A stretch of DNA of 64,000 nucleotides, taken from positions 1 through 64,000 of the forward strand of contig CAVTCR010000065.1 of assembly GCA_963733195.1 (NCBI GenBank). Direction: 5' to 3'. This document shows, piece by piece, positions 23,889-58,558 of this stretch (its first letter is position 1; every line of letters begins with the position of its first letter). A program made the translations under genes and the position numbers. The DNA comes from an uncultured delta proteobacterium (GTDB lineage Bacteria; Desulfobacterota; Binatia; Bin18). Below the pieces are notes generated by a model. That model ran no database searches, was not told the DNA's origin, and saw only the letters and a list, made by a program, of their open reading frames with translations.

Positions 23889-24858
23889 TTATGCCTGTTG
23901 TACGGCACTTAACTTCCAAGCATTTGGCCCTACTGGGCGGCTGAACGTCCAGTATTCCTCGAACTGGATGGGGTCAGAGTTGTTGCCACTCACGACTGCG
24001 CCGCTCTTAGCATCGACAGTGTAATCCAACAGATTCGCCAACAGCCTTACACTAATGTAGTCTTTGCCGGTCTCCGTCCACACTTCGGTGATCTTGCTTT
24101 CACGCAGGGCGATGTTTTCCATTTTGTTCTGTTGGCCACGCGCGCGGAGGTCGTTCAGTTCTTGGTCCCAAATCTGCATGAGCTCGCTGTCACACAGCGA
24201 ACGTAAGGTCCCCGTATCCTGCTTGTTCCATGCGCCCTGCACTTTGAAGAACATGTCTTGAGCAGTTTTGAGAAATTGTTCCGGAGTGAAACTCTGGTCC
24301 ATCGCCGTAAGCGTTCGGTAGTCGATCTGATCGATTGGCGGTGCTTCTTGGACTGGGGTGCTGGCGGGAGCTCGATAGTCAAAGTTATTGGGTGTTTGGG
24401 AACTGGTCCTCTGATACTGCACTGAACCGGGGCCGCTTGCTACTGCTGGGCTAAGAAATCTGCGATAGAGAAAATAACCGATGCCAGCCAAGAGTAATAA
24501 CTCAATCATGCCAAATCCGCTGCCGCCGACGCCGCCGCCGACCACCTGCGTGAGCGAAGCTAGAAAAAAGCATGGACCCCAAGAAACCACCGAGCATGGC
24601 CGTACCGAACGTACGCATGAAGCCACCAGGTGCCATCGGGGAGCGTTGTTGTGGTGCTCCTGAGTCCCAACGCTGCTGAGCCGGATTGTCAGGTGCCTGT
24701 CGCGCGGGGGACTGAGAACTTCTCGAACCACGAAAACCGCCAGAACGACCGCCGCCAGCGCGGGCCTCAGCGTAACTTTCCAGGACGATTTGTGATGCTA
24801 AGAAAAAAGCAAAAGCCCCTACCACTGAAAAAAACAAGCGACGTAGCGAAATAGACAT
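23889..24858 (-). CDS. Tim44-domain protein (one frameshift near 24570)
   Basis: EARAGGGRSGGFRGSRS N-terminus; FEEYWTFSR..WKLSAVQQ C-terminus. Confidence 0.88.
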
Positions 24859-25182
24859 AAACTCTCTCCTTTTGACGTAAGGTTAGATATAGACCGTGAG
24901 AAAAATCAAGCGAGTGTTTTGCGATCCTTTTGAATCTCGCTTCTTCTTTTCTCGCCTACCCATACCGACTGACTAGCGAGCATATCATCGCAGCCTCACG
25001 TCTGAAATACACCGTCTCTATGGAAAAGGGCAGCGGAGAAGCCATACGATGCGACTCTCTGAAGGGAGGACTGTTCTCATTGCCATAATGGCCAGATGTT
25101 TGGCTCTGCTGTGTACCGTATCGCTGCCACGTTGCGATATGGGTCCAGGGGCCATGCCCACTGACGTCTCCTGAGTACTGAA

Positions 25183-25247
25183 GTATAACGTCGAACACTG
25201 AGGGGCGCGAACGGAGTGAGCGTCCCTTCTCCAGTGTTGTGTTAGGC
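25183..25247 (-). other. integron attC site (65 bp)
   Basis: minus strand GCCTAAC-ACAAC-ACTGGAG..CTCAGT-..-GTTATAC with internal palindrome, just downstream of the O-methyltransferase stop. Confidence 0.8.
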
Positions 25248-25465
25248 ATCATAGCTCTGCTTAGCAGGCAACCTTTGCTTTTGTCCACTCTACTATGCCC
25301 GTGCACCCTCGATCACACTCATGGCGGATTGGGTCGGGGTAACCTTCGTCAGCCTGAAGCCCGACGCTTCGAAGAGGACGCGGTACTCAACCTCCGTGCG
25401 CTCACGCCCCCCGTTCATTACCATCATGTTCAGATCGGACAGGACCAAGGCTTGCGCTGCGCTAG

Positions 25466-27154
25466 CCCGGATTATTCATGAAGGATGCGGGACGAAACGG
25501 CTCGCCTCTGCTAAGGTCTGAAGCTGTCAAGACTTTCGGACCAGTCGCAAAGGAGCGAGCCGATGGCAGAGTGTATTGCACAACTCGCGCTGAACTTCCA
25601 TCCGACCCACCTGATCACAGTAGCCTTTGATGCGCCCCATATCTCCAGTGATGGCGGTGCGCTGTTGCTGCGCCAAATGGATGATCGCTTGGGATTGAGC
25701 GAGCGCTTGGCGGCGTTGCTCCCGGATGCGCGCGATCCGCGCAAAGTCAAACATGATCGCCGCGAGCAAATGCGGCAGCGGCTCTACCAGATTGCCTTGG
25801 GGTATCCGGACTGCAACGATGCCGACCGGTTGCGGCAGGACCCGGTCCTCAAGAGTGTGTGTGATCGCTCCCCTCAAGCCGCAGGGCTCTCCTCGCAACC
25901 GACGCTCTCGCGGTTGGAGAACGCGGTGGACATAGGGAGGCTGCGGGCGCTCGTCTGTGAGATTGAGGAACAGTATGTGAGGTCTTTCATCGGAGGCGCC
26001 GGACGTGATCGTCTTGGATATTGACTCCACGGACGATCCCACCCATGGCCAACAGCAACTCTCCTTCTTCCACGGGTATTACGATCAGCACATGTATCAT
26101 CCCTTGGTGATCTTTGATGGAGAGCGGGGCCAGCTGGTGAGTGCGGTGCTGCGTCCGGGCAATGCCCATGCGGCGCGCGGCGCGATGGGCGTCCTCCGCC
26201 GGATTATTCGTCGCCTCAAGCAGCGCTTTCCGCAGTCGCAGATTGTGGTGCGGGGCGATTCGGCGTTTGCGGTCCCGCGCGTGTTGCGGATGCTGGAGGA
26301 ACTGAATCGGGAGCTGGGCGGCATCGCCTACGTCGTGGGGCTCGCCCAGAATGCCGTCCTGCTCCGCTCCGGCGCGGCAGCCTTGAGCGAAGCCCGCCGC
26401 CGCTTTCAGGCCACGAAGCAGACCGTGCAACACTTTGACGCCTTTGCCTATGCGGCGGAGAGCTGGCCGCAGGCCCGGCACGTCGTCATGAAAGCGGAAG
26501 TCAGTGAGCACGGCGCCAATCCCCGTTTTGTGGTGACCTCGCTCCCGGAGTTCGCTCCCGCGCTGCTCTATCACGCGTATTGTGAGCGGGGCCAGTGTGA
26601 GAATTTTATTAAAGACTTCAAAAATGCGCTGCAGGCCGATCGCCTCTCCTGTTCCACGTTTGCGGCCAACTTCTTTCGCTTGCTCGAACACGCGGCGGCC
26701 TATGTGCTCTTCCATGCCCTGCGCACTCAGGTGGCCCCGCTGGCGCCGCAGCTGGGCCGGGCGCAATTCGATACGCTCCGGCTGCAGCTCTTAAAAGTGG
26801 CGGCGATTGTCTCGCAGTCGACGCGCCGGCTGCTCGTCCGGCTCCCGTTCGCTTTTCCTTTGGCACGCGTGTTCCGCGCAACTGGCCACGACACTCGCGG
26901 GGCTGCCCGTCCTGTCCTCCGCGTAATCATTCCCTCCTCACAGAAAGTTTTCCTCTCGTTTCGCTGTCGCCCTTACGTCAGCAGGGAGGAGTCCGTCTCC
27001 TCTTGCCCTCAGGCACCTCAGTTGGCCTGCTCGGCCGCTTGCGTTTCTTGCTCTTTTTTCTCTGTTCTTCACTATTTGTCAGATTGCACGATTCGCATCG
27101 GACTGTTCTGATACAGCTTCCCACCTTCCTCTCTTCGTTCATGAATAATCCGGG
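25466..27154 (+). mobile_element. IS1380-family insertion sequence (1689 bp)
   Basis: 17-bp perfect terminal IR CCCGGATTATTCATGAA; CTAG target duplication at 25462-25465 and 27155-27158. Confidence 0.93.
25563..26935 (+). CDS. IS1380-family transposase (frameshifts; 3' end approximate)
   Basis: SSDGGALLL, SQPTLSRLEN, LDIDST, VRGDSAF, RGQCENFIKDFK. Confidence 0.9.
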
Positions 27155-28067
27155 CTAGAGGATTCCACTCGAACTGGGAGCACCCGTTCGATGAGGAGGA
27201 GCTTCCCCTGCTCGGTCATAGCGCGGTGGCAGTTCTTGAGGATCGTGACCGCGTGGTTGTCATCCCAATCATGAATAACTCGGGAGAGAATATAGGCGTC
27301 TCCTCCACCTGGCACCGAGGTGAGGGCATCGCCTGCCATAACTTCGCAGCGTCCTGTCAAGCCAGCATCGGCGATCCGCTGCTTCGCTCTTTCAGCGACA
27401 TGGGGGAGATCGAAGAGGATTCCCTTCATCTTCGGATTTGCTTGGAGGAGGATAACAAGCAGACTGCCATCTCCGCCCCCTACATCGACCACCTGCTCGA
27501 TCGTTGAGAACGGGTAGCTGGCCAGTACGGCGGCATTGTATACGCCGATAAGGTTCGCCATCGCCTCGTCGAAGCGCTTAGCCTTCTCGGGATGCTGGGC
27601 GCGATGCTGCCATACGCCCATCCCAAAGACATGGTCGAAGGCTATCTCCCCCGTTCGCACGCTGTGCATCAGCTCGCCCCACGCCTGGTAATGGTCTTCC
27701 CCCAATTGCACAGTTGCCAGGCGCGCAGCGAGCCGGGACCATCGCTCCGCAGCGTGGCTGCGAGGGGAGTCAGTGTAAAGCGGCCCCGGTCATCTTCAGC
27801 GAAGACCCCCACACTGGCTAGCGCCCGCAGCACGCGGTAGAGGGAGGGCGCGTGTGTGCCGGTGGCTACGGCCAGCTCAGTAGCAGTCCTGGCTTGGTCC
27901 TGGACGAGGTCGGCGATGCCAAGCTTGGCGGCGATGTACAGGGCCCGTGACACCCAGAAGCCTGCAATCATCTGAAGCATCGCCACGGGCGGCGGAATAT
28001 CATCACTAGTAGTGCGATCGTGTTCACTCATGATCTACCCCTCCTGCAAATGTTGAGCGTGAAGAAC

Positions 28068-28165
28068 GTCTAACGTCCGCCTCGCCGCCGCGGCCCAACC
28101 GTATCCTTTCGCATTCACTCAGAACCGCTCGCGGGCCGCGGTCAGGCTGGAGGCGGGGGTTAGGC
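28068..28165 (-). other. integron attC site (98 bp)
   Basis: minus strand GCCTAAC (contains the gene TAA)-CCCCG-CCTCCAGC..CCGCGGCCC/GGGCCGCGG..GTTAGAC. Confidence 0.85.
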
Positions 28166-28750
28166 GATTGGAGGCAAGACCTCTTGAAAGAGGATGCTGA
28201 GCAACTGGCTCCCTTCGGGGCGGCTCCAATCCTGGGCGAGTTCTGCCATGAGCGTGTTAGTCGCGGTCAATACAACCCCTTCTCGCTCCATGCGCCGTCG
28301 TGACATTTCTTCGGATATTTCATAAGGCGACCCCGAAGCATCCATGACCGCTTGGACTTGATAGCCTTCGCGGCAGGCACTAATGGTCGGGAACACCAAG
28401 CACACATCCGTTGTTACGCCGGCCATGATGAGATTTCTACGGCCAGTCGATTCGACCGCCTGCTTGAAGTGTGGGTCGTTCCAGGCATTGACGATCCCAG
28501 CGCGCTTGACTCTCGCCGCAAACGCCTCAGGAAGAATCTGTTCGAGCTCCGGCATTAAGGGCCCCTGCTGGTTCTGCTCTTGAGAACTGGTGAGAATGAC
28601 AGGAATACCCAGGAGCTTGGCCGTTTTCGCGAGCGCCAGGGTGTTACGTTTGACTACATCCAGCGGGATGTTCTTGATGAGCTTCATCGTACCCAGTTGA
28701 TGATCGATAAGTAAAAGAGCGCTATCAGTTGGGGAAAACGTCCCAATCAT
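28160..28750 (-). CDS. isochorismatase-family hydrolase (YcaC-like)
   Basis: LLLIDHQ, NAW, AGVTTDVC, DASGS. Confidence 0.9.
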   Translation of the reverse strand: MIGTFSPTDSALLLIDHQLGTMKLIKNIPLDVVKRNTLALAKTAKLLGIPVILTSSQEQNQQGPLMPELEQILPEAFAARVKRAGIVNAWNDPHFKQAVESTGRRNLIMAGVTTDVCLVFPTISACREGYQVQAVMDASGSPYEISEEMSRRRMEREGVVLTATNTLMAELAQDWSRPEGSQLLSILFQEVLPPIA

Positions 28751-28868
28751 TTCACTATCCTCCGTTGAATTTGCCGCCTGCTATAAAGTAGGCGGCTAAG
28801 TCCTTGAATTCATTGAATAGCACCTTCCTTCTACTTTCATAGGTGGTGGCGACGTCCCACGTCATGAA

Positions 28869-28959
28869 GGCTAACGCCAAGGATTTAATCCGACCTGCCG
28901 TACCACAGTGAGACCACTCCCCGGTCTACTCGTCCCAGGGCGGATAAATCCTGTTGGAC
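28869..28959 (-). other. atypical attC site (91 bp)
   Basis: minus strand GTCCAAC-AGGATTTATCCG..CGGATTAAATCCT-TGGC-GTTAGCC. Confidence 0.65.
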
Positions 28960-29459
28960 GGAACCGCGGCCCCACAGGCCGTCGACGCTATGGGGATTCT
29001 ATCGAGTCTAGGGAGTCCTGCCAATGGTTGCACGAGCGGTGAAACGGGCAGCGACCAAGCGGAGGAGCAGACGGACTGGCGCAAGAGGCGTGGCAAGAGC
29101 AGGAGTATCGGCTCTGATTGCTCGCGAGAAGAGGGAAGAGCCAGGATGTGAACGCACGGGACCAGACCGCTCGGTGAGGGGAGGCACGAGTAGTGAGGAG
29201 TGCCACAAGGGCAGAGTAGGAACGGCGTGGAGACGGGTCATGGCGGGAGACCTCGCTGGGGAGCCAGGAGGGCGATGATCCGCCAGGAACTCCCGGCACA
29301 GTGGAGGCACCGTGCGGAAACGGCGGACGGAGCGCTCGGGTCCGGCTGAGAGCCGGGCGGCACGCCCCACGGCCGCTCGACTTCTGGCCCACCAGAACCG
29401 GCACCAGAGTCGCCCTCCGCGGCCTTTTTTTCATCGGAGAGGGTGAGGCCTGGCCTCTT

Positions 29460-29481
29460 CACCGGCTGATAGGGGTTAGCG
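29460..29481 (-). other. half attC (R'' end) closing the DUF4258 cassette
   Basis: minus strand TTGCCCGCTAAC matches the cassette start GTTAGTGTGCAA at 10 of 12 positions; no partner arm found. Confidence 0.5.
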
Positions 29482-29493
29482 GGCAACCCATCC

Positions 29494-29709
29494 TTAGACA
29501 TGCACCGGCGTAAGCTGAAACACCCGCGCTAGTTGGCTTGCTTGTGTGAGGTCCCCTCGATGCAACGCTTTCCGTACCGCATCTAGCTTCTGCGCATCGG
29601 CGAGAGACAGAGACGGGGACCACCCTTCTTCCGTTTCGATCAAGGTCACCTCAACTTCGGCGGCATACTGTCCTTCGTGAATCAGTTTGGTGTGGCGTCG
29701 TTTGCTCAT
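29494..29709 (-). CDS. small hypothetical partner of DUF4258 protein (putative antitoxin)
   Basis: ATGA overlap with the DUF4258 gene; 71 aa. Confidence 0.75.
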
Positions 29710-30029
29710 TGTTTTTTCCTCAGCAGATTTTCACTCCAACGGTTCGGATCTGGTCGGTACGCCGTCACCACGACAGCGGGGGTGGTGGTGTTTTTGGCAA
29801 TTCCCCATACCACATGTATCGGCTGGCCTTGCCCATCGTGCTGCAACACCAGCACGCACGGCCCTTTGTGGTAGGTTGGGTAATCTTCAACCACGACGGC
29901 CTTGTCGATACCCGCTACAATGTCATCAATGAAAATATTATCCTCGGCCAACTCGTCATAGCCATGGTCCGAGACGTGCACTTCACGGCGAGCCACCAAC
30001 TCACGAATCTGTTGCAACGTTTGACTCAT
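29706..30029 (-). CDS. DUF4258-domain protein (RelE-like putative toxin)
   Basis: [30 protein letters not shown]. Confidence 0.85.
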
Positions 30030-30107
30030 TGACCCTCGGATCAAGAAGGACAACTCCTCTCAGGAACTCATCGTATCCAGAACCACCGATCAGTTCCAGA
30101 GCTTGCA

Positions 30108-30206
30108 CACTAACGGTCCCAGTCACCGTTTGCCGCCCCATCGTGTCCTTTCAGGTTCAGCAGTCTCCGCACGCGGGCGGCAAAACGGTGCAGGCGCTTG
30201 CTATAT
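30108..30206 (-). other. integron attC site (99 bp; R'' AAC changed to AGC)
   Basis: minus strand ATATAGC-AAGCG-CCTGCACC-GTTTTGCCGCCC..GGGCGGCAAAC-GGTGACT-GGGACC-GTTAGTG. Confidence 0.8.
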
Positions 30207-30292
30207 TTCGTTTGACGTAGTGCCATTGGCAAACGACAATCGAGCGTGCGCATCCTACGCCATTTCCAGCACCCTGAATACGCGCGGCACAC

Positions 30293-31086
30293 TTATTTCG
30301 CTGTCAGAATCCACGTAACGATTAGGTCAAGGTCAGTATTCGGTATGTCGGAGTGCGCAGGCATGGGAATCATGCCCCACACTCCCGCGCTGCCATTTTT
30401 CACCTGCATGACAAGGTACGTGGCTGCGTCCGTCTGGGTGCGATATTTTGCTGCAACCTCTTTGAACGCCGGCCCAATGCCTTTCGTTTCCGCGGTGTGA
30501 CACGCCACGCAGCCATACTTCGCCAACATCCCTTCCACACCCGCCGCAGGCAATGCCGGCTGCAGCGAAACCGGAGGGGCGGAGCGTTGGGAGTCGGCGT
30601 CGCGTTGGTCGCAAGATCTTCATACGAAGTGGTCGGCACCACATTCGGCACGGGCTGTGACTTGAGATAGGTCACGATCATCCATATGCCTTCACTCCCC
30701 AACACCCCGCCGTACGCGGGCATGCCCTTCGCTCGGCCATAGAAGATCGAGTGGAAGATTTCTGCGTCCGCGCCGCCATAGTGCCAACGCCCATCGACTA
30801 GACTCGGCCCGATCGACCCTAGCGCACCACCGCCATGGCACCCGTCGCAGTTCATAGCGGAGAACAGTCTCGCCCCTGTTTGCGCGCTCTGCAAATCGTC
30901 CTTGTAGGGATTCTCGAGCGTGACGCCGGCCGCATTCACCCCACCAGCGGAAACGTTGGCTTCGGAGCGGATCGCCACAGGTCCATCGCTCGAATCCCCA
31001 GCCTCCGCGTCGCACTTGATACAGGGAAACGTGGCAACGCATGCTGCCAGGACGTAGGCTACGGCCCAGGCATTTCGCAGTCTCAT
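30293..31086 (-). CDS. periplasmic cytochrome c, probably two haem domains (XoxG/cL-like + c551-like), frameshift near 30570
   Basis: signal peptide; CDGCH..GPSL..W.YGG..IF.SI..G...GMP, then CVACH..GPAFKEVA..G.WG.IPMP. Confidence 0.8.
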
Positions 31087-31100
31087 ATGTCGTCTCCCCT

Positions 31101-32888
31101 CTACAACGCAAAGATCCACACCATCCCGCCCTGGCTCGTATGGCGACCGAGGTCTTTCATGAAATCCGCCGGTGGCCGCACATCCGTCGGATCATCGGCA
31201 CGCACATCGCCCGCAACCAGGAACCAGTCGCCGCCGATGCCCGCGTACACCGCCACATACTGTTTGCCATCTGGGCCGGTGTAGGTAATCGGATTGCCTA
31301 CGACTCCAGAGCCGACTTTGAATTTTGCCAGGAGGGCGCCAGTCTTCGCATTGACTGACTTAAACCAACCGTCGAGCGTGCCATAAAATGCCACATCCCC
31401 GGCGGTAACGAGAGCGCCGCTCCAGGCGGGATACGGCTCCTTCACCTCCCACATCTTTTTCCCGTTGGTTGCATCCCAAGCCATAAAAGCACCGAGATGG
31501 CCGCCGGGACCCGCGTGGTACGGTGAATTCACGCCTATGAATGGAGTCCCGCGGATATAGGTGGCGCGCGTAGCCGCGAAGTCCATGCAGAAGTTGTTCG
31601 TTGAGGTGTAGAAGAGTCCGGTGCGTGGCGAATAGGCGCCTGGCGAGGCTGGACTTACCCCACCCTCAAGACTGGGGCAAATACCCTTGATATTGCCCTT
31701 CGAGGCGCCGGTTTGTTTGCTGGGGTTCAGTACTGGTCGCCCAGTCGTGAGGTCAATCGAGGTCGCCCACGTTACCGTCACAAAAGGTGGCGCAGAGAGG
31801 ACCTCGCCTGTCGCACGGTCCAGGGTGTATTGGAAGCCATTCTTGTTGAACGACACCAGCGTTTTGCGTGGGCGTCCGCCGATCTTGAGATCAGCCAGAA
31901 TCATGGGGGCGTTTGCATCGTAGTCCCAATTGTCGTGCGGTGTAAATTGATACGCCCACACCAGCGCGCCATCTGATGGCCGTCGTGCGAGTACACTTGA
32001 GGCCCATTTGTTATCACCCGGACGTTGCTCAGGATTGTAAGGCGCAGGATTTCCGGTGCCGTAGTACAGCAGGTCGAGTTCCGGATCGTAGGATATTCCT
32101 CCCCACACCGGAGCACCGCCGGTCTTCCAGGCCTCGGCTGGCCAGCTCGACTTCCCAAGCTCAACTCCCTTATCGTAGAACGGCTTAAAGGTGTTGGCAT
32201 TGATGCGCATGTCAGCGTCGGGACCGAGATTGTGCGCGGTCCAGAGAACCTTGCCGGTCTTCACGTCGAGTCCTTTGACCCAGCCGTAGATGCCAAACTC
32301 GCCGCCCGAGGCGCCGACAATCACGCGGTCCTTGACCACCACGGGCGCCATCGGCGTCGTTTCACCCTGGCCGACATCGGCAATCGTGGTGCTCCACACT
32401 TCGCGTCCTGTGAACGCATCGACTGCCACGGTGTGTCCGTCCAGAAGATTGTAAATAATTTTGCCATCGGCGAAGAACGCCCCGCGATTGATCACATCAC
32501 AGCACGCGATACCAATGGCGTTGGGGCTCACGGCCGGACGGTACTTCCACTTCAGCGGGTAGCCTTCCTTTGTGAGGTCGAAGGCGTAAAGCACGTTCGG
32601 ATACGGCGTGACCACGTACATGGTGTTATGGACCACCAGTGGCTGCCCTTCGTGTCCAGCCAGCACTCCCGTGGAAAACGTCCACACCGGGCGAAGCCCT
32701 CTGGCATTCGCGGCAGTGATCTGTGCCAACCCGCTATAGCGCGTAGAAGCGTAGTCTTTGGCGGGCATCGTCCACTGGCCGTCTTCTGCTCCCTGCGTCG
32801 CCCCACACGCGAAGACAAGCATCATGTGCATCGCAGCCGTCCGGGCGAAAACCCAGGTCAGTCTGTGGGCCAATTGAACGTATTTCAT
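31101..32888 (-). CDS. PQQ-dependent methanol/ethanol-family dehydrogenase, XoxF-like (lanthanide-type D-Y-D)
   Basis: WTFSTGV..GHEG.PL, vicinal CCD..NRG, GGEFG, GTGNPAP, RPGDNKW, PHDNWDYD. Confidence 0.88.
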   Translation of the reverse strand: MKYVQLAHRLTWVFARTAAMHMMLVFACGATQGAEDGQWTMPAKDYASTRYSGLAQITAANARGLRPVWTFSTGVLAGHEGQPLVVHNTMYVVTPYPNVLYAFDLTKEGYPLKWKYRPAVSPNAIGIACCDVINRGAFFADGKIIYNLLDGHTVAVDAFTGREVWSTTIADVGQGETTPMAPVVVKDRVIVGASGGEFGIYGWVKGLDVKTGKVLWTAHNLGPDADMRINANTFKPFYDKGVELGKSSWPAEAWKTGGAPVWGGISYDPELDLLYYGTGNPAPYNPEQRPGDNKWASSVLARRPSDGALVWAYQFTPHDNWDYDANAPMILADLKIGGRPRKTLVSFNKNGFQYTLDRATGEVLSAPPFVTVTWATSIDLTTGRPVLNPSKQTGASKGNIKGICPSLEGGVSPASPGAYSPRTGLFYTSTNNFCMDFAATRATYIRGTPFIGVNSPYHAGPGGHLGAFMAWDATNGKKMWEVKEPYPAWSGALVTAGDVAFYGTLDGWFKSVNAKTGALLAKFKVGSGVVGNPITYTGPDGKQYVAVYAGIGGDWFLVAGDVRADDPTDVRPPADFMKDLGRHTSQGGMVWIFAL

Positions 32889-33119
32889 GTTTTCCTCATG
32901 TGCGTTCGGGTAGATGATCGGCGCCTTCTCATGCAACGTGTTGACATATATTTCCTCTGCAACGCACAACGTCACTACTGCACTTCGTGTGATATGTTTG
33001 AGCCCTCACTGTCCCTGAGTCGTGCCTTTCCCTGCCTTGTGGGACTCGATGAACCGAGTAACCTCGACCAGGTTGTTGCGAAACATAGTGAACAACGTGG
33101 AGGAGGGCATGTTTATGAA

Positions 33120-33215
33120 ATATAACGCTAAAGCTCAGCAGCCGGGCCGCCCGACTGGCGCAATACCTCGGAAGGGCGTAATGGCGGCCCGGTCTGCTGT
33201 AGCGGCTTGTTCGGC
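33120..33215 (-). other. integron attC site (96 bp)
   Basis: minus strand GCCGAAC-AAGCC-GCTACAGC-AGACCGGGCCGCC..GGCGGCCCGGCT-GCTGAGC-TTTAGC-GTTATAT. Confidence 0.88.
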
Positions 33216-33282
33216 TTGAATATTTACGATTTCTTCCCTTTTCCGTCCCTTTTCCGCTCTGTCCCCTGTTCCGCTCTCGCAG

Positions 33283-34263
33283 CTACTTGAGCCGCGGGTC
33301 GTCATCCCATAGGACCTGGTAGCCTCCGCCATCATCGACAAATAGAATTGCCCCGCGACCGCCTACCCTTGCATGGGTCACGCCTTCGACCTTCATCCTT
33401 TTGTGGAACCGCACATTCTCGAAGTGACGGACAACCCCTTGAGCATTGCCGTCCCACGAATAGAGTGCGAACGGGGCTTTCGATGCACTGGTCGAATTGC
33501 CGGCGACGATCAGCCATACACCGCGCGAAGGGTCGAACCCGATCGTTCGAATGCCCTGCTCTCCCCGGTCGTCCTTGATTGCAAGGGAAACTGGCGGCAG
33601 CATCTCGAAGTTGCTCAGATGCCACGGACCGTCCACCCGTTTGAGCCGGACCCGCAGGATGAGCGGTTTCCCCTCGATGACGGGTGTGCGCACTCCCAAC
33701 AGCAGCACCTCCTCGGTCGGGCTCCACCCCAGTCCTTCGACGTTCAGCCCACCGTCATCGGGCAGGTACCTCGGAGACTTCCCCAGTTCCGGAGCGTTTT
33801 CAACAATCCATTCTCGAAATGCCGAAAGGACCTCCGCTTCGAGCCGGTCATCCTCTCCGAATGAAATCCTCAAGAGGCAGTTTCTGGCCGTGGATTCTTT
33901 GCCTCGCTTGCTCTTCTTTTTGTGACGTCTTTTTCTCTGCTTCAAGCTGAGCGAGGGGATCACGACAATGAGGCTGCCGCCTTCCGTACGCACATGCGTC
34001 ATTCCTTCAAGATCGTCCACGGTTCCCGGTTCAATCCCTCTGATCGGACGCCTGATGAGCGGGCAGGCCATTTTTCCATCAGCCGCGAGCCGAAGCTCAA
34101 AGAGTGCATCGCCGATGTTGTTATCGCAAAAGAGAAACTTGGAATCGTCAATAGCGACGATTTCGGAAGCGTTGTAGGGCTCAGGGCCGGGTCGCTCGCC
34201 AAAGGCGATCGGCTTGATGCTTGGGTTCTTCTCAGGCTTTTCATCCCTTTGTTTTCGCAACAC
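33283..34263 (-). CDS. DUF3616-like (beta-propeller) protein
   Basis: DLEG, GGLNVEGL, LLGVRTP, GIR, KVEGV motifs. Confidence 0.7.
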   Translation of the reverse strand: MLRKQRDEKPEKNPSIKPIAFGERPGPEPYNASEIVAIDDSKFLFCDNNIGDALFELRLAADGKMACPLIRRPIRGIEPGTVDDLEGMTHVRTEGGSLIVVIPSLSLKQRKRRHKKKSKRGKESTARNCLLRISFGEDDRLEAEVLSAFREWIVENAPELGKSPRYLPDDGGLNVEGLGWSPTEEVLLLGVRTPVIEGKPLILRVRLKRVDGPWHLSNFEMLPPVSLAIKDDRGEQGIRTIGFDPSRGVWLIVAGNSTSASKAPFALYSWDGNAQGVVRHFENVRFHKRMKVEGVTHARVGGRGAILFVDDGGGYQVLWDDDPRLK

Positions 34264-34340
34264 GAGTATACTCCTCTTGTTCCACCCTGCGATTTGCCTG
34301 CTTGCCTCTTGATCGCCTCAAATTCACGAGACTCTCCGGC

Positions 34341-34380
34341 GCCGAACGCATGTTAATTGGCCCAAAGAAAATTGGCAAAC
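34341..34380 (-). other. candidate attI site (start of cassette array)
   Basis: minus strand GCCAATTAACATGC-GTTCGGC; GTTCGGC is the exact complement of R'' GCCGAAC at 33209-33215; no attC palindrome; AT-rich context. Confidence 0.55.
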
Positions 34381-34487
34381 CTTGTTGTTTCTGCAAAATA
34401 AGCTACCCACGAAATTTTCTGAATCATCTGCCATTCCTTCGTCATTTACAAGAGTTACTGGGCGTATTCTCGAAATACTCTCTAGGT

Positions 34488-34514
34488 GTTATTTTGCACA
34501 ACCTGCAAAATAAC
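34488..34514. promoter_or_regulatory. perfect 11-bp inverted repeat, candidate operator
   Basis: GTTATTTTGCA-CAACC-TGCAAAATAAC; extra TGCAAAATAA half-site at 34392-34401. Confidence 0.4.
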
Positions 34515-34599
34515 CCGGACATGGCCGATGCTGTTATCGTGCTCAACAGACTCACTCAGCCTTTCACAACGATCCGCTGGACTGTGCATCCCTTGTCCT

Positions 34600-34668
34600 C
34601 TTCGGTCATCCTTCGACTTCGTTTGCGCGTAGCTTGTCCTAAGCTTAGTCGAAGGGCTTAGGACGAGC
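34600..34668. repeat. palindromic repeat, same family as the 4242-4396 internal hairpins
   Basis: CCTTCGACT..GTCCTAAGC..AGTCGAAGGGCTTAGGAC. Confidence 0.55.
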
Positions 34669-34773
34669 AGAGAAAAATTCGCGTCCCCCGAGCTTTTGGT
34701 AATGCACCTCGCCGTTGTCTTGCCTGGGCGTGCATGTTAGGGTTCTCGCACTTTTTTCGGGGAGTACTCCACT

Positions 34774-35974
34774 GTGGCTGATGTGAAGAAAGTCGTGCTC
34801 GCCTACAGCGGCGGCTTAGATACCTCGGTCATCCTGCGTTGGTTGATCGATACCTATAAGTGTGAAGTCATTGCCTTCTGTGCTGATCTCGGACAAGGCG
34901 AAGAGCTGGCGCCAGTTGAAGAGAAAGCCAAGAAGGTCGGTGCGAGTAAGATTTACATTGAAGACCTGCGCGAAGAGTTCGTCCGCGATTTCGTCTTCCC
35001 GATGTTGCGGGCCAACACCTTTTACGAAGGTGGTTATCTGCTCGGGACGTCGATCGCGCGACCGCTGATTGCCAAACGGCAAATTGAGATCGCCCGCAAA
35101 GAAGGAGCGAATTCTGTTTCCCATGGTGCGACCGGGAAGGGCAATGATCAGGTGCGCTTCGAGTTGACCTATTATGCACTCGAACCCAACATTCAGATCA
35201 TCGCGCCGTGGCGGACCTGGGACATGCGTTCACGTTCTGACCTCATCGCCTATGCCGAAGCTCGTAACATTCCGATCCCTGTCACCAAAGAGAAACCGTA
35301 CAGTACGGATCGTAACCTCCTGCACATCAGTTACGAAGGTGGCATTCTCGAAGACCCCTGGCGTGAACCGTATGATGACATGTTCGTACTTTCTGTCTCT
35401 CCTGAAAAAGCGCCAGACACGCCTGAGTATGTCGAGATCGATTTCACGGCGGGGAATCCAACTGCCGTAAACGGAGAACCTCTGTCGCCAGCGACCTTAC
35501 TTGCGAAGCTCAATACACTCGGGGGCAAGCACGGGGTTGGTCGCCTTGATCTTGTCGAGAACCGCTATGTCGGGATGAAGTCACGCGGTGTGTACGAAAC
35601 CCCCGGTGGAACAATTCTGCACGCTGCGCATCGTGCGATCGAGTCGATTACCCTTGACCGTGAAGTGATGCATCTGCGTGATTCGCTTATCTCTCAGTAT
35701 GCCGAGATGGTGTACTACGGCTACTGGTTCGCGCCTGAGCGTGAGATGTTGCAGGTCGCAATTGACGAGTCGCAGAAGAATGTCACTGGCACAGTGCGGC
35801 TCAAGCTTTATAAAGGCAACGTAATGGTTGCTGGCCGCAAATCGCAGAAGACACTGTACAATCCCGATGTCGCGACGTTCGAGGCTGGCGGCGATTATCG
35901 TCAAGCCGATGCTGAAGGATTTATTCGTCTCGAATGCGCTGCGTTTGCGATTACGGGCGTTGGCACAGAAATAG
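34774..35974 (+). CDS. argG: argininosuccinate synthase (+1 indel near 35932)
   Basis: [33 protein letters not shown]; corrected end [15 protein letters not shown]. Confidence 0.97.
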
Positions 35975-36074
35975 CTTTCAGCTGAAAAGGGGTAAAAGGG
36001 CAAAAGGGGAAATGGGTAAGAGGAAAAAAGGGACGGGAGATGGTCGTCAGTTTTTCCAATCAAGCCACGTAGAT

Positions 36075-36173
36075 AGATCTCCAAGGCTGTCCCTGAGTGC
36101 AACGAAGGGTCTTCTAGAGCCTGTCCTGCCATCGAGTGCGAGCCTGAGCGTAGTCGAAGGGCTCAGAATGACA
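36075..36173. repeat. palindromic repeat (CCTGAG..CGAAGGG family)
   Basis: CCCTGAGTGCAACGAAGGG and CCTGAGCGTAGTCGAAGGGCTCAGAATGAC, resembling 4242-4396. Confidence 0.55.
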
Positions 36174-41892: not shown

Positions 41893-42039
41893 GCGGCGAC
41901 AGCCTGAGGAGCATGACGCCACGATTTACGTGTGCACGGAAATAGTCAGGTACCCTCGATCAACGCCGTCTCGCCGGCAGCGCTCTTTCAGTAAGGCAAC
42001 AAAGAGATCGTCTATTTCCGTGTCGTTCCGGTGCGCGTG

Positions 42040-43134
42040 CGTGACAGCGGATGAGCTTGCTCTTCGGCCGTGTTGTTGCTGGTCAACGCATCCGACATCA
42101 CCAGCGGTTTGCTCCCGCTGCGGCTCCCGTTGGGCTAAGAGCGCGTCCAGATTCTCCCCCGCATGCTGCCGCCCGGTATAATAGAAACAGATCCGCCGCT
42201 CTCCGACTTGCACGATCAACGCCGTCGTATACATCCCCGTCCGGGCCGGCTCGGCGCCCCGAGGCTGTCGCTTGCGCGCCGGCCTGCTGGTTCTCCTCGA
42301 TCAAGCGTCAAGACCCGCCCGGGCGTGTCATCTTGAAAGATCACCTCGCCTTGCGCGGCCAATCGCTCCAAGTACTTGAAGATCGGATCGCCACAATCTC
42401 CCACGAGCTCCGCTTGATCCCATTGCGTGGCATCGGGCACGGGCACACCCACCAACGCTTGAAACCCTTCGAGCCGATACCACGGCAGCCCCAGATAATA
42501 GCGCGCCAGGGCGAACACCGCCCGCGCCCGGGCACTGTACTTCTCTGCACCCGGTGCGGCGGGCACGGACGCGGTGAAGATTTGCCCACAGGCGGAGCAC
42601 CGCAACTTCTCCAGCTCATAGCGAAGGGCTGAGAGGAACGCATTGCCGTCGAGCCGCATCTCCACGCCCGGCGATAACTGATATAACCGCCCCCGCCCAC
42701 ACGCTGGACACCGCTCGCCCACCGCTAATTCCTCATGTCGACACGCGACCGTTTGCGCCCCCCGATAGACCTCCGCGCCGTGCCGCCCATGCCCTGCTGG
42801 ACGTTGCTTCCCCACGGTCGACTCCGGCGTAGCACGTCTCCTCCCCTCCCTGTGTGAGGCTTCCGTCTGCCCCCCGTGCCGCCCGTGCTCCCCCACTCGG
42901 GGTCCCGCCCGCCGGCGGGGGCTCGCGCTTCTTGGGCTTCTCACCAAACACCAGGGCCTTTAAACGCTTGAGACTCAGCTTTGCTTCCCGCAGGGCAAAC
43001 AGCAGCCAGAAGTAAAACGTGAGCACCTTCACCAGGACCCGGCGATCCTCCGCGCTCAACGCATTGCGCTCAATCCGCTCAATGAGCGCTTCGCCTTCTT
43101 CGCGACTGAGTGTGACTTCTTCCGGCCGCTTCAT
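42040..43134 (-). pseudogene. IS66-family transposase (TnpC-like), frameshifted and C-terminally truncated
   Basis: LKALVFGEK, CPACG..RCSACG zinc motif, LPWYRLE, FQDDTP, TGRQHAGENL, DAL. Confidence 0.8.
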
Positions 43135-43768
43135 CGCACCATTCCTCCGATGCCATTTACCAACCCTGCAGCAGGGGCGTGGCCTTCGACCGCGGCAGTT
43201 ATAGCAGGAAGCGCGGGCGCTCGTGAAGGACGGGACTCCTGCTGTCGGTGTCAAGCGCTCAGCTTGCGTAGTCAAACTGCCGCTCATGCACGATGGAAAA
43301 TGTCAAGCAGCGCCACCGGAAAGACACCCCCAACGGGCTTTCCCCAACGGACCGTCCCGAGGCCCTGGCGCCCGGAAACCCCTGACGCTCTTCCCTCACC
43401 CATCCTGCGCCGCCTGTCCAGGCCGCGCCACGCCTTGCTGCGAGGCGATGCGGCAAACAGCTGCTGCTGGCGGGCGATGTTGGCATGCCCCCAGGGTGTT
43501 TTCGGGGGCTGTGCTCCGGAAGGGGCGGCGCTCAAATAGCGTTTGAACCTCCTATCCTCACAGAAGGCCTACGATGGCGAGCGTTTTCCCAGTTTGACGC
43601 GTATCACCATGTACTCTGGACGACCGCGACGTCTGTGGGCCAGGCCGGCGCCTCTCCATCACAATGTGCTCGTGGCCTGGTGACTCGGCACACACCCCCG
43701 TCAACAGCAAAGCGCGGGCGAACCGCAGAGGGTAGCCCGCGCTTGCTGCAACGGTATTGGTAACGAAC

Positions 43769-46014
<2,246 letters not shown>

Positions 46015-46206
46015 GTCGATCCTTCTCCTTTCTGGCTGATTCGCTGCAACTAATGGCAGATAGCGAGGCCTATCTTGCCGCTGATTTGCGCCGCCCGGGG
46101 CCGCATCGAGGTCCAGCGGCACGGCACTCGCGCATATGCTATACTAGACGCTAACGTTCTATGAACATGAACTGACGCATACAACCGACAGTAAAGAAAG
46201 TCAATT

Positions 46207-46524
46207 CTAGCGGCTCTGGTGCCGAGGTCGGGTGCACTCCTGGTGCTGCGGCCGTCCTGGCTCCGTTGCCGCCCGCCCCCCACCGGCCGCAGTCCCGCCT
46301 GACGTCGGCGGCTCGCGTTTCTTGGGCTTCTCGCCAAACACCAACGTCCTCAGTCGTTTCAGACTTAGCTTCGCCTCGCGTAACGCAAAGAGCAACCAGA
46401 AATAAAACGTCAGCACCTTCACGAGCACCCGCCGATCCTCGGCGGTCAAGGCATCCTTTTCGAGACGCTCGATCAACGCTTCGCCGTCCTCGCGGCTGAG
46501 GGTCACTTCTTCAGGACGTTTCAT
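46207..46524 (-). pseudogene. second IS66-family transposase N-terminal remnant
   Basis: MKRPEEVTLSRE...VFGEKPKKREPP nearly identical to the copy starting at 43134. Confidence 0.85.
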
Positions 46525-47168
46525 CGCACCCTCTCCTCCTCCGATTCCGTTCGCCATATCCCAGCAAACGGCTTCCGGCCTGAGACTGCGAAGCTTATAG
46601 CAGGAGGGACGCACACTAGTGAAGGAGGGGGCAAGTGCCCTCAGCCTCAAGTATTCGGCATAAGCCGTCGAGTTGGGACTGCGCCTCAATCGGGAATGTC
46701 AAGCAGGCGTCACCGGAAGGACACTATTCTCCAAGCATGGTATACCGATCTGAACTGCCCGTTCCTCTCTCAGGGTACTCGTCAAGAGTTAGCAATGACG
46801 GCTCGGCCAGAGACAGACAAACCCGGGATGCGACACAAAAGGTTTGGGAATTACGTTGAACTTGACACCTGCCTCCCAACCGGCGGCTTTGTGGGGGCAA
46901 TACGCTATTGCTGAGGCAGGGAACAGGGCCACAAACCCCGCAAGAGGAGTGGCATACCAGAGAGCTTGTGGGTTCTACAAGGCGGCCCGAAAACGCGGAG
47001 TAAGGCATACAAAAAAGCGTTAGGTCTTGTCAGACATGTCCCCAACTTGCGTCCACGAAGGGGGGTGTCCAGACGCATTCAGCGAGTAGAAGGGCGGCAC
47101 GGAGAAGCAGCGGAGGGCAGAAGAGAGGAGGGAGTGATTAGAGGAATACGCTATCCGCTAGGACGTGT

Positions 47169-52055: not shown

Positions 52056-53138
52056 TTACACGGAGCGTTCAGCGAGCCATCTGTCAAGCTGCGGCCACAG
52101 TCGATGGACGGCATTGGCTCCAGCTACCAGGCTTACGTGTCCACCTTTGAGTATGATCTCGGTCTTGTCCTTGCTACCGATTAAGCCGATCAGATCACGT
52201 GAGGCTTCCGCCGGTACGATATGATCATGCTCAGCGGCAACGTGCAGAAACGGGACACGGATCTGACCGAGGTTGACCTTTCGCCCTGCCAGCGTGAATT
52301 CGTTCCGCACGAGCTTGTTCTCGCGTATAAACTCAGTAATAAACTGCCGAGCCGTCTCTCCTGCAAAGGGAATCTGGTCGGCGGCCCAGCGCTCAAAACG
52401 CAAATGCGCTTTCACGAAGGCGTCATCATGGACGTTATCGAGGAGCTTTAATCGCCCAGCCGTCTTCTGGAATGGGCGCAGCATGTCGAACGACACTTCG
52501 ATCAACTCCGGCGGTATATTCCCCAAGGTTGCGATTAACTGGTCAAGATCGAAGTGTGCGGGGTCGGTCCAGGTGCGATACAGGGACATGCCCTCGGCGT
52601 TAATCGGAGTGGTGAAGCAGACTAAGTTTTTGACCGGACCGTCAGCATGGAGCGCGGCATACATCGACGCTAATTGTCCGCCCATGCAGTAGCCGACCAT
52701 CGACACATCCGGCTCCCCAGAGTCTTCATTTATCACTCGCACGCAGGCGGGGATAAAGTCCAACACGTAGTCTTCGAGGCGGAGAGTTGAATGCTCAGCG
52801 CGCGGGACGCCCCAGTCAATCAGATACACATCAAAACCCTGGCGCAGCAAAAACTCGACTAAACTCTGTCCTTTGGTCAAGTCCAAAATATAGGATCGGC
52901 TCACCAGTGACATGACAAGGACAATTGGGACGCGGTAGATCTCGTCACAGAGGGGGCGATAGCGGTAGAGCTTGAGGGTCCCTTGGCTGTAGATAACATC
53001 TTTGGGTGTCGCTCCAAGCTCACCAGTCAACTCATCAAGCGAACCGAGTCCGGGAATGTGGCGTTGAAGCGCACGATCGACCGCGGCACGCGCCTGGGCT
53101 GCAATCTCTTCGGTTGAAGGACGTTGCTCTTGTTGCAT
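52056..53138 (-). CDS. phaC: class III/IV PHA synthase catalytic subunit
   Basis: TPKDVIY, YILDL, DWG, lipase box GYCMGG, DHIVP, GGH. Confidence 0.9.
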   Translation of the reverse strand: MQQEQRPSTEEIAAQARAAVDRALQRHIPGLGSLDELTGELGATPKDVIYSQGTLKLYRYRPLCDEIYRVPIVLVMSLVSRSYILDLTKGQSLVEFLLRQGFDVYLIDWGVPRAEHSTLRLEDYVLDFIPACVRVINEDSGEPDVSMVGYCMGGQLASMYAALHADGPVKNLVCFTTPINAEGMSLYRTWTDPAHFDLDQLIATLGNIPPELIEVSFDMLRPFQKTAGRLKLLDNVHDDAFVKAHLRFERWAADQIPFAGETARQFITEFIRENKLVRNEFTLAGRKVNLGQIRVPFLHVAAEHDHIVPAEASRDLIGLIGSKDKTEIILKGGHVSLVAGANAVHRLWPQLDRWLAERSV

Positions 53139-53141
53139 CGA

Positions 53142-53537
53142 TTACTCCTGCTTAGGTGGCGTTTTTGTCCGCTTGGGACGGGGCGCGTGTAAATCCGTGC
53201 CAGTTGCTAAGTTCTGCTTGGTCAACGCCTGGCGTAGTTGGCGAATCTCAACTTGCAGCCCGGCAATCGTATCTTCGAGTTTGCCCACCCGGTCACTAAG
53301 CGCCAGGACATCTGAGCGTGAAGGGAAGTTGAGGTTGGCTAACCATTTGGCCATCGCTTCAGTGAACATGCGTTGGGCATGCACGGCTTCTTGCAAATAC
53401 TTGCCTGTACTCTTGGCGACACGGTCGTCACCCATGAGCTGCGTGATGCCTTCGTTCCACGACTTCTCTGATTTCTGATACCACTCACGCCACAGTCGGA
53501 CTGGATCGAGATTCACACTCTTGTCACTTTTGGTCAT
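53142..53537 (-). CDS. PHA synthase accessory subunit (PhaE/PhaR-like)
   Basis: LNFPSRSDV..L..RV..LE coiled coil; directly upstream of phaC. Confidence 0.75.
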   Translation of the reverse strand: MTKSDKSVNLDPVRLWREWYQKSEKSWNEGITQLMGDDRVAKSTGKYLQEAVHAQRMFTEAMAKWLANLNFPSRSDVLALSDRVGKLEDTIAGLQVEIRQLRQALTKQNLATGTDLHAPRPKRTKTPPKQE

Positions 53538-53624
53538 AGTTCATTACTTCCTTTGCCTGACTATTACGCGGCGATTTCCCTTACCGCTGGGGCAGGGCTG
53601 ACGCGACTCCCCACTCTCCATGCC

Positions 53625-54142
53625 TTATCTTTTTACCTTCTTGATCACTGGCTTGCCGTTCTGGAAGGCTGGTTCGTCAACTCCCATACTCCACTTCACT
53701 ACTGGTGTGATGCGCAGGTATTCGCCTTCTCCGAGCAACCCGTACGTTTAACAACCTCCGCTGTGCCATGAATCTTGATGGAGCGAGGCTTCCACGGCGT
53801 GAGCGATTCCCAGTCGTCGAAAACTAGAGCGACTCTGCCGTTGCCTCGCATGACGTTGCGGTACTTCATCGTCGCCGGGTTGTTACGTCCGCCAATATAG
53901 AAGTATGAGCCGTCGAACTCGAAGGATACTGGGGCAACGTCGGGTTGTTGTTTTTTGGAGACGGTCGCAATGCGGGCGAGACGTTGCGCCTTGATATAGG
54001 CAATCTCTTTTTCGGAAAACATCGCTTTGCTTTCTTGTGATGGGGTTGCTTCTGCAGCAGTTGCCCTCTGAGGCACGATTACCACGAGAGTCGCGAGTAG
54101 AAAGCAGCCTCGTATCATTGGCCAGCGACAGTTCCATTGCAT
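53625..54142 (-). CDS. PPOX-class (F420/FMN) oxidoreductase with N-terminal signal-like extension (frameshift near 53740)
   Basis: QRLARIATV..QPDVAPV.F, KYRNV, VALVFDD, PWKPR; RBS GGAGGAG before ATG 54142. Confidence 0.8.
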
Positions 54143-54314
54143 CCTACTCCTCCTTTGACATAAGGTCATTATCGCAACGACCTCTACAACACCGCCCGGA
54201 CAGACTACTAGCAAATCCACCTGCTATCGCTAGCTTCGCTTGAATGTACGCTTTGCGCTTGCAATGTCCTCTAATGTCCAATAAAAGAGACAAAAAGATA
54301 ATACGAGGGAGAAA

Positions 54315-55019
54315 ATGCAGCTCGTCGTCCGAGATGTCTCTAAGCTTTTCAATGTGTCGGAAAAGACCATCTATCGATGGATCTCGCAGGGAGTGCTGCC
54401 TGCCTATCGTGTGAATGACCAGTATCGATTCAATCGGGCGGAACTCCTGGAGTGGGCGACCTCGCGGCGCATGAACGTCTCGCCAGACATTTTTGCCGAG
54501 CCAGAGAGTAGTGCGACACCCCTCCCTGGCTTGGTCGATGCCCTCCAAGCCGGTGGCATCTTTTACCGGATCGGCGGTACGGAGAAGGAGTCGGTCCTGC
54601 GTGCGGTGGTCGAGACTTTACGGCTGCCTGAAGAAGTCGATCGCGAGTTCTTGCTGCGAGTGCTGTTAGCCCGTGAAGCGTTAGAATCGACTGGCATCGG
54701 TGATGGGATTGCGATCCCCCACGTGCGCAATCCTGTCGTTCTGCATATAGCCCGGCCTATGATCACCTTATGTTTTCTCGATCATGCGGTCGATTTCGGT
54801 GCACTCGATGGGAAACCGGTCAGTATCGTCTTTTCCTTGATTAGTCCGACCGTCCGCGCCCATCTTCGCCTCTTGTCTCGGTTGTCATTTGCGCTGCAGG
54901 ATCCAGGTTTCAAGGCCGTGATCCATCGCCAGGGAGCCCGTGATGAGATCTTTGCGGAAGCGCACAGGGTCGAGGCGGGACTGAAATACGACCCGACAGC
55001 AACGGAGCGGAGAGGATAG
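54315..55019 (+). CDS. excisionase-type HTH + PTS EIIA(Ntr-like) fusion regulator
   Basis: VSEKTIYRW..LPAYRV..QYRF; RE...STGIGDGIAIPH; DGKPV. Confidence 0.9.
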   Translation: MQLVVRDVSKLFNVSEKTIYRWISQGVLPAYRVNDQYRFNRAELLEWATSRRMNVSPDIFAEPESSATPLPGLVDALQAGGIFYRIGGTEKESVLRAVVETLRLPEEVDREFLLRVLLAREALESTGIGDGIAIPHVRNPVVLHIARPMITLCFLDHAVDFGALDGKPVSIVFSLISPTVRAHLRLLSRLSFALQDPGFKAVIHRQGARDEIFAEAHRVEAGLKYDPTATERRG

Positions 55020-56993: not shown

Positions 56994-56997
56994 CGCC

Positions 56998-57909: not shown

Positions 57910-57913
57910 TCGG

Positions 57914-58558
57914 GTGCTACTCGGGATTGATGCAATTCTGGTCGTTGTTGTCTTGACAAACTTACTGGTGCTGGGCTCCAGTCGCTTAGCAACCTGCATC
58001 CGCAGCGTGGCCCTCCAGGGTGTCCTGCTCGGGGTGATGACGTTCGTGGCGCACGACAGCGCCTCTCCGCTGCGGACCACCATCTTGGCGATCGCGAGTA
58101 TCAGCATAAAGGGCATTGCCTTCCCGGCGTTGTTATTTCGTGCACTTCGCGAGGCGGAAATCCGGCGAGAGATTGAACCGTACGTGGGTTACAATCTCTC
58201 CATTCTCATTGGCTTGGCGATGTTGCTGTTCTCGCTGTGGCTGAGTGAGCGGCTGCCGTTGCCGCAGGTGCCTATCTCGTCCCTGATTGTTCCAGTTGCC
58301 CTGTGTACGAGTTTGATCGGCCTCTTCGTCATTATCAGCCGGAAAAAAGCGATCACCCAGGTCCTGGGCTATCTCGTGCTTGAGAATGGCATCTATGCCT
58401 TTGGCGTCGGTGTGGTGCCGCACTCTCCGCTGTTGGTCGAACTCGGTGTGCTCCTTGATGTTTTTGTCGCCGTTTTCGTTATGGGGATCACGATTTTCCA
58501 CATCAGCCGACAGTTCGACCACATCGATACCGACCGGATGGTACTCCTCAAGGATTGA
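57914..58558 (+). CDS. hyfE: Ehr/hydrogenase-4 membrane subunit (HyfE-like)
   Basis: QVLGYLVLENGI, VELGVLLD. Confidence 0.88.
   Translation: MLLGIDAILVVVVLTNLLVLGSSRLATCIRSVALQGVLLGVMTFVAHDSASPLRTTILAIASISIKGIAFPALLFRALREAEIRREIEPYVGYNLSILIGLAMLLFSLWLSERLPLPQVPISSLIVPVALCTSLIGLFVIISRKKAITQVLGYLVLENGIYAFGVGVVPHSPLLVELGVLLDVFVAVFVMGITIFHISRQFDHIDTDRMVLLKD

Follow-up and report, generated by a model that had tools for sequence, protein, structure and literature searches.

Integrons grow by stepwise insertion of gene cassettes, in which the integrase IntI recombines the attC site of a cassette with the attI site of the platform and the newest cassette comes to lie nearest attI. Arrays of attC sites without a neighbouring integrase gene (attC clusters that have no integron-integrase, CALINs) can arise by routes that include loss of intI, according to the available text of Cury et al. 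(2016; PMC4889954). Of the 279 CALINs in that text, only 15 had an intI pseudogene nearby, and attI is described there as unknown for most integrons and not searchable.

The present analysis concerns a cassette array next to argG (34774-35985) in a 64,000-nucleotide stretch (the window) of contig CAVTCR010000065.1 (assembly GCA_963733195.1), from an uncultured delta proteobacterium of the lineage Desulfobacterota, Binatia, Bin18. This array is very probably a decayed chromosomal integron of the co-oriented ("inverted integrase") type, which would have lost intI and kept attI, a predicted promoter and five recognisable cassettes. As in the CALINs of Cury et al. (2016), as far as the accessible text describes them, it has at least two co-oriented attC sites, fewer than six sites in all and no neighbouring intI gene, while its cassettes are unlike resistance cassettes and an IntI is encoded elsewhere in the genome. 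A reading of the letters alone (the sequence-only reading) had called the array a CALIN without an integrase. That definition applies and no functional intI lies nearby, yet judged from its sequence the array is more than a bare CALIN, since an attI-type site, a leader and a stump of intI, all overlooked in that reading, are kept at and beyond its right edge. A 44-bp stump would likely escape the domain search described in the available text of PMC4889954.

Head of the Array: Candidate attI Site, Leader and intI Remnant

Directly before the first cassette lies a candidate attI core (34341-34370, minus strand; GGGCCA-ATTAAC-ATGC-G|TTCGGC, crossover G at 34347), here called type A. Its pattern matched once in the window and never in 100 shuffles. 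Among 55 genomes of the family it gave 12 matches in six genomes, the reversed pattern gave none, and 12 further matches occurred in metagenome contigs. Conservation of the preceding sequence stopped at GTT in 12 of 12 aligned loci. From its position and conservation we infer that this non-coding site, which ends at G|TT before the first cassette and adjoins a remnant of intI, is the attI of an inverted-type integron; the argument from position can be made because the same site follows a full-length intI in two metagenome integrons, L119 and L127.

The conserved non-coding leader (34348-34563, minus strand) contains, in alignments, a palindrome at 34489-34513 and a further half-copy at 34391-34401. 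Promoter and binding-site roles are predicted for it, with -35 and -10 elements at 34451-34446 and 34428-34423 (minus strand, 17-bp spacer) that form a conserved pair in a 21-locus consensus. Contigs C59 and C56 of the same genome carry copies, at 68-76% identity, of the approximately 170 bp that precede cassette 1, and C73 carries one of the last 59 bp only; each of these copies ends at GTT and is followed by co-oriented genes.

Upstream of the leader, a 44-bp 3' stump of intI (34564-34607, minus strand, approximately 14 codons) runs in the direction of the cassettes, reads ..GQGMHSPADR and is then one base short before the stop. A hidden Markov model of six other intI tails matched 34607-34564 with an E value of 2.4e-5 (genome-wide). 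The distance from stump to crossover is 216 bp, compared with 218-220 bp (n = 8) and 167 bp (n = 1) in related loci. In L127, with an intact intI, and L119, with a full-length intI carrying one stop, the gene ends approximately 219 bp before the site on the same strand, and the stump has the same layout, co-oriented and with attI beyond its 3' end. A complete integron would have a full-length intI beside attI; here approximately 14 terminal codons remain. On the side of the missing intI, the stump adjoins a repeat resembling a repetitive extragenic palindrome (REP-like; 34602-34675, hairpin fold), of which 14 other copies (77-91% identity) occur in the genome.

attC Sites and Cassettes

Training of the covariance model for attC used 16 sites, none of them in the window; this genome (G000) supplied 15 and a relative (G010) one. 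Across the 64-kb window it ranked 28068-28165 first (E 8.5e-17) and 30108-30206 second (E 3.1e-11), two scores that are not fully independent because close relatives of both sites are among the training sites. The sites at 33120-33215 (E 0.005) and 25183-25247 (E 0.08, the lowest of the four top-ranked sites) followed. All five palindromes that the sequence-only reading had taken for attC sites were present, and their plus (bottom) strands out-folded dinucleotide shuffles (z -2.6 to -3.6; 1-2 of 200 shuffles equal). Four of them stand as attC sites; the fifth, 28869-28959, scored at the background level of the window (E 1.7) and belongs to a different element (see below). Model matches and folding bottom strands were thus found where their absence had been named as fatal to the claim. 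Four sites supported by model and folding lie on one strand, where a CALIN needs at least two within a few kilobases.

The site at 33120-33215 has canonical boxes on both arms, with R'' GCCGAAC, a 5-nt spacer and L'' GCTACAGC carrying one extra base on one side, and L' GCTGAGC, a 6-nt spacer and R' GTTATAT on the other. In the R'' box of 30108-30206, AGC replaces AAC, which is kept in a 97%-identical copy on contig C79, and 25183-25247 is 91% identical to an attC on C10. Diversity of the attC sites had been taken to imply varied donors; such donors are not needed, because two of the sites come from a family that is represented dozens of times in the same genome. Cassette starts had been said to match the R'' box at the end of the same cassette. 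Over the variable bases they did so in 4/4, 4/4, 3/4, 3/4 and 3/4 positions, and the match was the best or tied best in all five testable cassettes; it is strong in cassettes 1 to 3, long in cassettes 2 and 3 (8/9 and 7/9) and weak in the last two.

Two hand-written attC scans were not used as proof: the loose version gave 398 matches in the genome, mostly noise, and missed two of the window sites, and the strict version found only 33120-33215 of the five and gave two matches per Mb of a Markov control. False attC matches at C14:42946-43121 and C51:19742-20710 of this genome consist of short, regularly spaced direct repeats and resemble CRISPR arrays. An Rfam search of the window gave no match.

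Every cassette gene lies on the minus strand, and the gene families named in the sequence-only reading agree with the domain searches. Cassette 1 (33126-34346) carries a DUF3616 gene (33283-34263; Pfam PF12275, E 6e-5) and attC 33120-33215, and its start, GTTCGGC, is the reverse complement of its R'' box. Cassette 2 (30114-33125; 3.0 kb) combines a pyrroloquinoline quinone (PQQ) alcohol dehydrogenase (31101-32975; TIGR03075, above cut-off), c-type cytochrome domains in two frames (30293-31119; Pfam cytochrome c) and attC 30108-30206; its final 461 bp recur on C79 with 97% identity, followed there by a different cassette. Residues 351-353 of the dehydrogenase are D-Y-D, which we take to be a mark of lanthanide-dependent enzymes. 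A PQQ alcohol dehydrogenase with its cytochrome within one 3-kb cassette represents useful metabolic cargo. In cassette 3 (29475-30113), a DUF4258 gene (29706-30053; PF14076, E 1e-18) and its 71-aa partner (29494-29709) form a putative toxin-antitoxin pair. Cassette 5 (28074-28874) holds a YcaC-like isochorismatase-family hydrolase (28160-28750; PF00857; NF041461 below cut-off) and attC 28068-28165. Cassette 6 (25189-28073) contains an O-methyltransferase gene in three pieces (28031-27157, then 25484-25299), mapped by tblastn with an intact paralogous cassette gene on C19 as query, and attC 25183-25247. Reads of four sequencing runs over the region consisted of scattered pieces from relatives, with a best DNA share of 0.14 for any run and no RNA run among those listed; no cassette-boundary joint was among the joints listed, which is neutral.

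Insertion Sequences in the Array

Three insertion sequences (IS) have left traces in the array. The half site reported at 29475 is a remnant of attC, namely the R'' box of cassette 3 (29481-29475), all that remains of that attC. It had not been recognised that the site is cut by the 5' non-coding (left) end of an IS110-family element (29335-29474, minus strand), inserted directly behind the AAC of the box; cassette 3 is likely without an exit site of its own. Among 12 relatives of this end, seven begin directly behind an RYYYAAC-type box and four continue into a transposase open reading frame (ORF) identified as DEDD_Tnp_IS110 (Pfam PF01548 and PF02371), so that the family arrangement of a non-coding end upstream of a DEDD transposase is seen in relatives only, the window having no transposase. 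A short motif at the very start of the end recurs approximately 130 bp further on, as might be expected for a bridge-RNA donor guide.

At approximately 29340 the IS110 end is joined, at a short shared sequence seen in the junction alignment, to a 476-bp 3' remnant of an IS91-like element (28869-29344, minus strand), comprising the last ~30 transposase codons, a 370-bp tail and the attC-like terminal hairpin at 28869-28959. The unit between cassettes 3 and 5, previously described as a cassette without an ORF, consists instead of these two fused stumps. The IS91-like remnant is 94% identical to C15:4879-5353, which is preceded by a tyrosine recombinase and a Y2 transposase with a zinc-binding domain (PF04986, PF14319), of which the window keeps the ~30 codons. 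In the hairpin the L arms are approximately 3 nt out of register and deviate from the canonical 5/6-nt spacer geometry of attC; in seven copies its end falls on GTT and keeps register with the following cassette. On these sequence features, 28869-28959 is the end of an IS91-like element, not an ordinary attC.

Although family and attC of the O-methyltransferase cassette had been correctly named, the sequence-only reading missed that its gene is split by an IS1380-family element (25466-27154, plus strand; NF033539, 270 bits against a cut-off of 180). The element has terminal inverted repeats and CTAG on both sides, in agreement with the DDE_Tnp_1_4 transposase, inverted repeats and short target duplication typical of its family; copies with 84-90% identity occur on C45, C48, C81 and C35.

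Integrases and Platforms in the Genome

On the 142-kb contig that contains the window, no intI-like match was found at E ≤ 0.001 (TIGR02249, tblastn), and with the 44-bp stump alone the array has no neighbouring intI gene. The genome search for intI that had been recommended yielded one intact copy, on contig C33 (477 bits against a cut-off of 265), with cassettes beyond its 3' end and an attI sequence different from type A. Its product and the L127 protein have 67% identity, and the type-A clade, formed by L127, L119 and L118 (support 100/99), excludes the C33 product. No type-A integrase occurs in the assembly, where other pieces of intI are truncated or split. A genome scan with the covariance model gave 74 attC matches with E ≤ 0.5 among 150 candidates scored.

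The type-A platform occurs four times in the genome, beside four different host genes. A second multi-copy attI-like family, ..GTTGAATTAAA|GTT, gave 12 pattern matches, approximately nine of which share upstream sequence as judged by eye (C1:40215, C19:108680, C24:50452, C28:39293, C39:27435, C41:10302, C47:68314, C66:45706 and C68:11653). With the four type-A sites and the C33 site, approximately 14 platforms are thus present for one intact intI. By its sequence, this genome is strewn with decayed integrons, the window locus among them.

In total, 24 type-A loci, approximately 21 of them independent (there are two same-locus duplicate pairs and one near-identical pair), were found by a search for attI, which builds the presence of attI into this count. 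An intact intI is present at one of them and a full-length intI with a stop at another; eight, including the window, have a piece or tail, and 14 show no trace of intI within the 757-2523 bp covered upstream of each locus. Within the family, 15 of the 55 genomes contain 26 full-length IntIs, none of them with a type-A attI in the available flank (three flanks being shorter than 220 bp), nor was one found alongside 28 IntI loci across the phylum (best E 0.29). The leader was present in five of 351 genomes of the class, all from this family. Carriage by phages was considered and rejected, as four pattern matches in viral contigs covered only 20-25 core bases, without leader or intI, and were taken as chance. 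A conserved ORF of approximately 100 aa lies directly 3' of intI in 15 of the 26 full-length integrase loci of the family (L089-L106, by eye) and has three decayed copies in this genome (C33:5033-5323, C32:16104-16265 and C1:40400-40630).

Neighbouring Genes and Assembly Quality

A Tim44-like gene (23889-24876) is split over two frames, and argG (34774-35985) shifts frame near codon 389 relative to its relatives; the assembly likely carries indel errors. Frameshifts were therefore rejected as proof of cassette decay. At the four Tim44 loci with genes listed, the neighbours are other genes. Members of one palindromic repeat family flank argG on both sides (34602-34675 and 36143-36166; 37 BLAST rows with E ≤ 1). 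In the composition profile of the window, two features within 42000-47000 and 53000-60000 are conspicuous, one being a block rich in G+C (0.63-0.66) and the other a stretch whose AT skew is strongly negative (to -0.38).

Discussion

The array would not have arisen without an integrase, because the intI tail, the inferred attI and the predicted promoter survive at 34347-34607. As the box matches suggest, IntI would have built it cassette by cassette through attC x attI insertion, with the G of 34347 as the insertion point and the newest cassette nearest attI. Thereafter, intI would have been lost from its 5' side, an IS110 element would later have landed in the third attC, a deletion would have joined what was left of it to an IS91-like element's tail, and the last cassette would have received an IS1380. 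Cassette 1, and perhaps cassette 2, is likely still expressed from the leader. The C33 IntI could likely excise units flanked by intact attC sites, because attC recognition is broad, according to the available text of PMC2095811 and PMC9668308; new insertion at the attI of the window would need an integrase that accepts a type-A site.

Several observations weigh against a decayed integron at this locus. The role of attI is assigned by position and conservation, and its core has four bases between AAC and GTT. A promoter consensus scan gave two matches against 0.8 expected, which is near chance, and did not recover the conserved pair but only a second candidate, TTGCCA-17-TAACAT at 34378-34350. 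By tblastn alone, the 44-bp stump matched intI weakly (E 1.6; 0.025). Sequencing error may account for the single-base breaks in cassette genes; since the Tim44 and argG genes are frameshifted as well, such breaks are not readable as decay. Twelve argG-upstream regions of relatives contained no leader, Tim44, intI or attC, and the argG and Tim44 regions of relatives included neither an empty site nor an ancestral copy of the window locus, because no relative examined has this platform at argG. In G010, from another genus, a different integron remnant lies just upstream of argG (L112, 1500-2210), with an intI piece of a different clade followed by attC. It has ~37 bp more argG-upstream sequence in common with the window than other relatives have, and the region upstream of argG is possibly a preferred landing place. 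An ancestral argG integron common to both was rejected, the G010 piece having 80-81% identity with another clade against 64% with type A.

Among the alternatives, it is very improbable that the array is a classic CALIN, formed by secondary-site insertion or by rearrangement away from a distant integron and without a platform of its own. Both routes are given in the available text of PMC4889954, and the lack of intI-like matches on the contig, the intact IntI elsewhere and the dozens of dispersed attC sites fit them; however, the 260-bp block of intI tail, leader and attI, homologous to complete integrons, stands exactly before cassette 1 and largely refutes this origin. Somewhat less remote, but still improbable, is that a promoter-attI module of approximately 200 bp is itself mobile and seeds arrays at new loci, never having stood beside intI. 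In L077 and the same-locus pair L121/L122, a 198-bp leader-attI module is 91% identical beside unrelated upstream genes, the four copies in this genome adjoin four different host genes, and 14 of 24 loci lack a trace of intI. Yet the left boundaries of the module vary from approximately -90 to -360 bp and some intI remains at 10 of the 24 loci (the window among them), in line with erosion by deletion, and neither target duplication nor terminal repeat was seen at the module.

A tentative possibility deserving more weight than these is that the platform is a live orphan, in which the cassette promoter (Pc) and attI are under selection and cassettes are exchanged through an integrase acting in trans, which would be a non-cognate IntI encoded in the same cell or a type-A IntI passing through. 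Two orthologous pairs without intI, L071 (longer as L084) versus L128/L123 and L075 (L086) versus L125, have the junction from host gene to attI in common and diverge directly after GTTAG. Identity over the last 150 bp is at least that of the host gene (0.86 and 0.82 in the first pair; 0.85 and 0.66 in the second), and falls to 0.48-0.49 beyond the crossover in both; L084 and L128 also have a 49-bp right flank in common. Moreover, L118 and L119 have different first cassettes, each genuine and with a matching R'', next to 705 bp in which the two are 99.9% identical; in L118 the 5' half of intI is missing. In the genome studied here the tail of cassette 2 recurs beside another neighbour. These differences in first genes at the crossover suggest use of intI-less attI sites in trans and lend the attI role indirect support. 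All this evidence comes from loci other than that of the window. Furthermore, a cassette-type R'' follows the first gene in only one member of each orphan pair, the first cassette is the same in the same-locus pairs L121/L122 and L123/L128, and the genomes concerned are 84-93% complete, so that a cognate intI could be unassembled. The available text of PMC2095811 describes IntIs as strictly specific for their own attI, and that of 10.1101/2025.06.18.660453 indicates that in Xanthomonas equal intI lesions usually accompany equal arrays. A broader and rather unlikely proposition is that, in this bacterial family, type-A promoter-attI platforms have outlived their own integrase clade and now serve as dispersed docks, loaded and unloaded by integrases that the same cell encodes but that belong to other clades. 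If so, the rule restricting each IntI to its own attI would be broken, and many "dead" CALINs would be live expression sites.

As a single locus, the decayed integron described here is an ordinary and well-documented kind of integron fossil. Its value lies in the attI that it reveals, since the attI of the majority of integrons is not known and a family of such sites is here defined from 24 loci, along with an integrase cognate to it (L127) and a non-cognate integrase of the same genome. With the attI family and both kinds of integrase in hand, two questions become testable: whether cassette capture in trans continues in CALINs or these are frozen reservoirs, and how strict the pairing of IntI and attI is outside clinical integrons. 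A literature search that covered neither closed-access papers nor supplements and could have missed a paper on Binatia integrons gave no account of the type-A attI family, nor of cassettes being exchanged at attI sites without intI.

Comparison with Known Systems

The following comparisons refer to the accessible text of the sources cited. As in the IS1111-attC elements ISKpn4 and ISPst6 (PMC11187229), an element of the IS110/IS1111 superfamily lies within an attC; unlike those, it has its non-coding region upstream of the transposase (the IS110 layout), follows the orientation of the cassettes and is preserved as a left end only. ISShvi3 of a Shewanella integron (PMC9229058) resembles the second remnant in being IS91-like, in register with the cassette array and bounded by an attC-like hairpin, whereas here only the last 476 bp remain and the hairpin departs from the canonical 5/6-nt spacers. 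With inverted-integrase integrons (PMC3575428, PMC4889954) the locus has in common that intI has the orientation of the cassettes, with attI beyond the 3' end of intI, and attI downstream of intI is also found in archaeal integrons (PMC9668308). In contrast to both groups, the attI-leader family of the window is mostly orphaned and was found in one bacterial family only. The chromosomal integrons of Xanthomonas (10.1101/2025.06.18.660453) likewise combine a broken intI, there through deletions or stops, with attI and array in place. Whereas Xanthomonas strains with the same lesion usually have identical arrays, two orthologous pairs without intI differ here from the crossover onwards, and a single genome holds many platforms with three types of attI.

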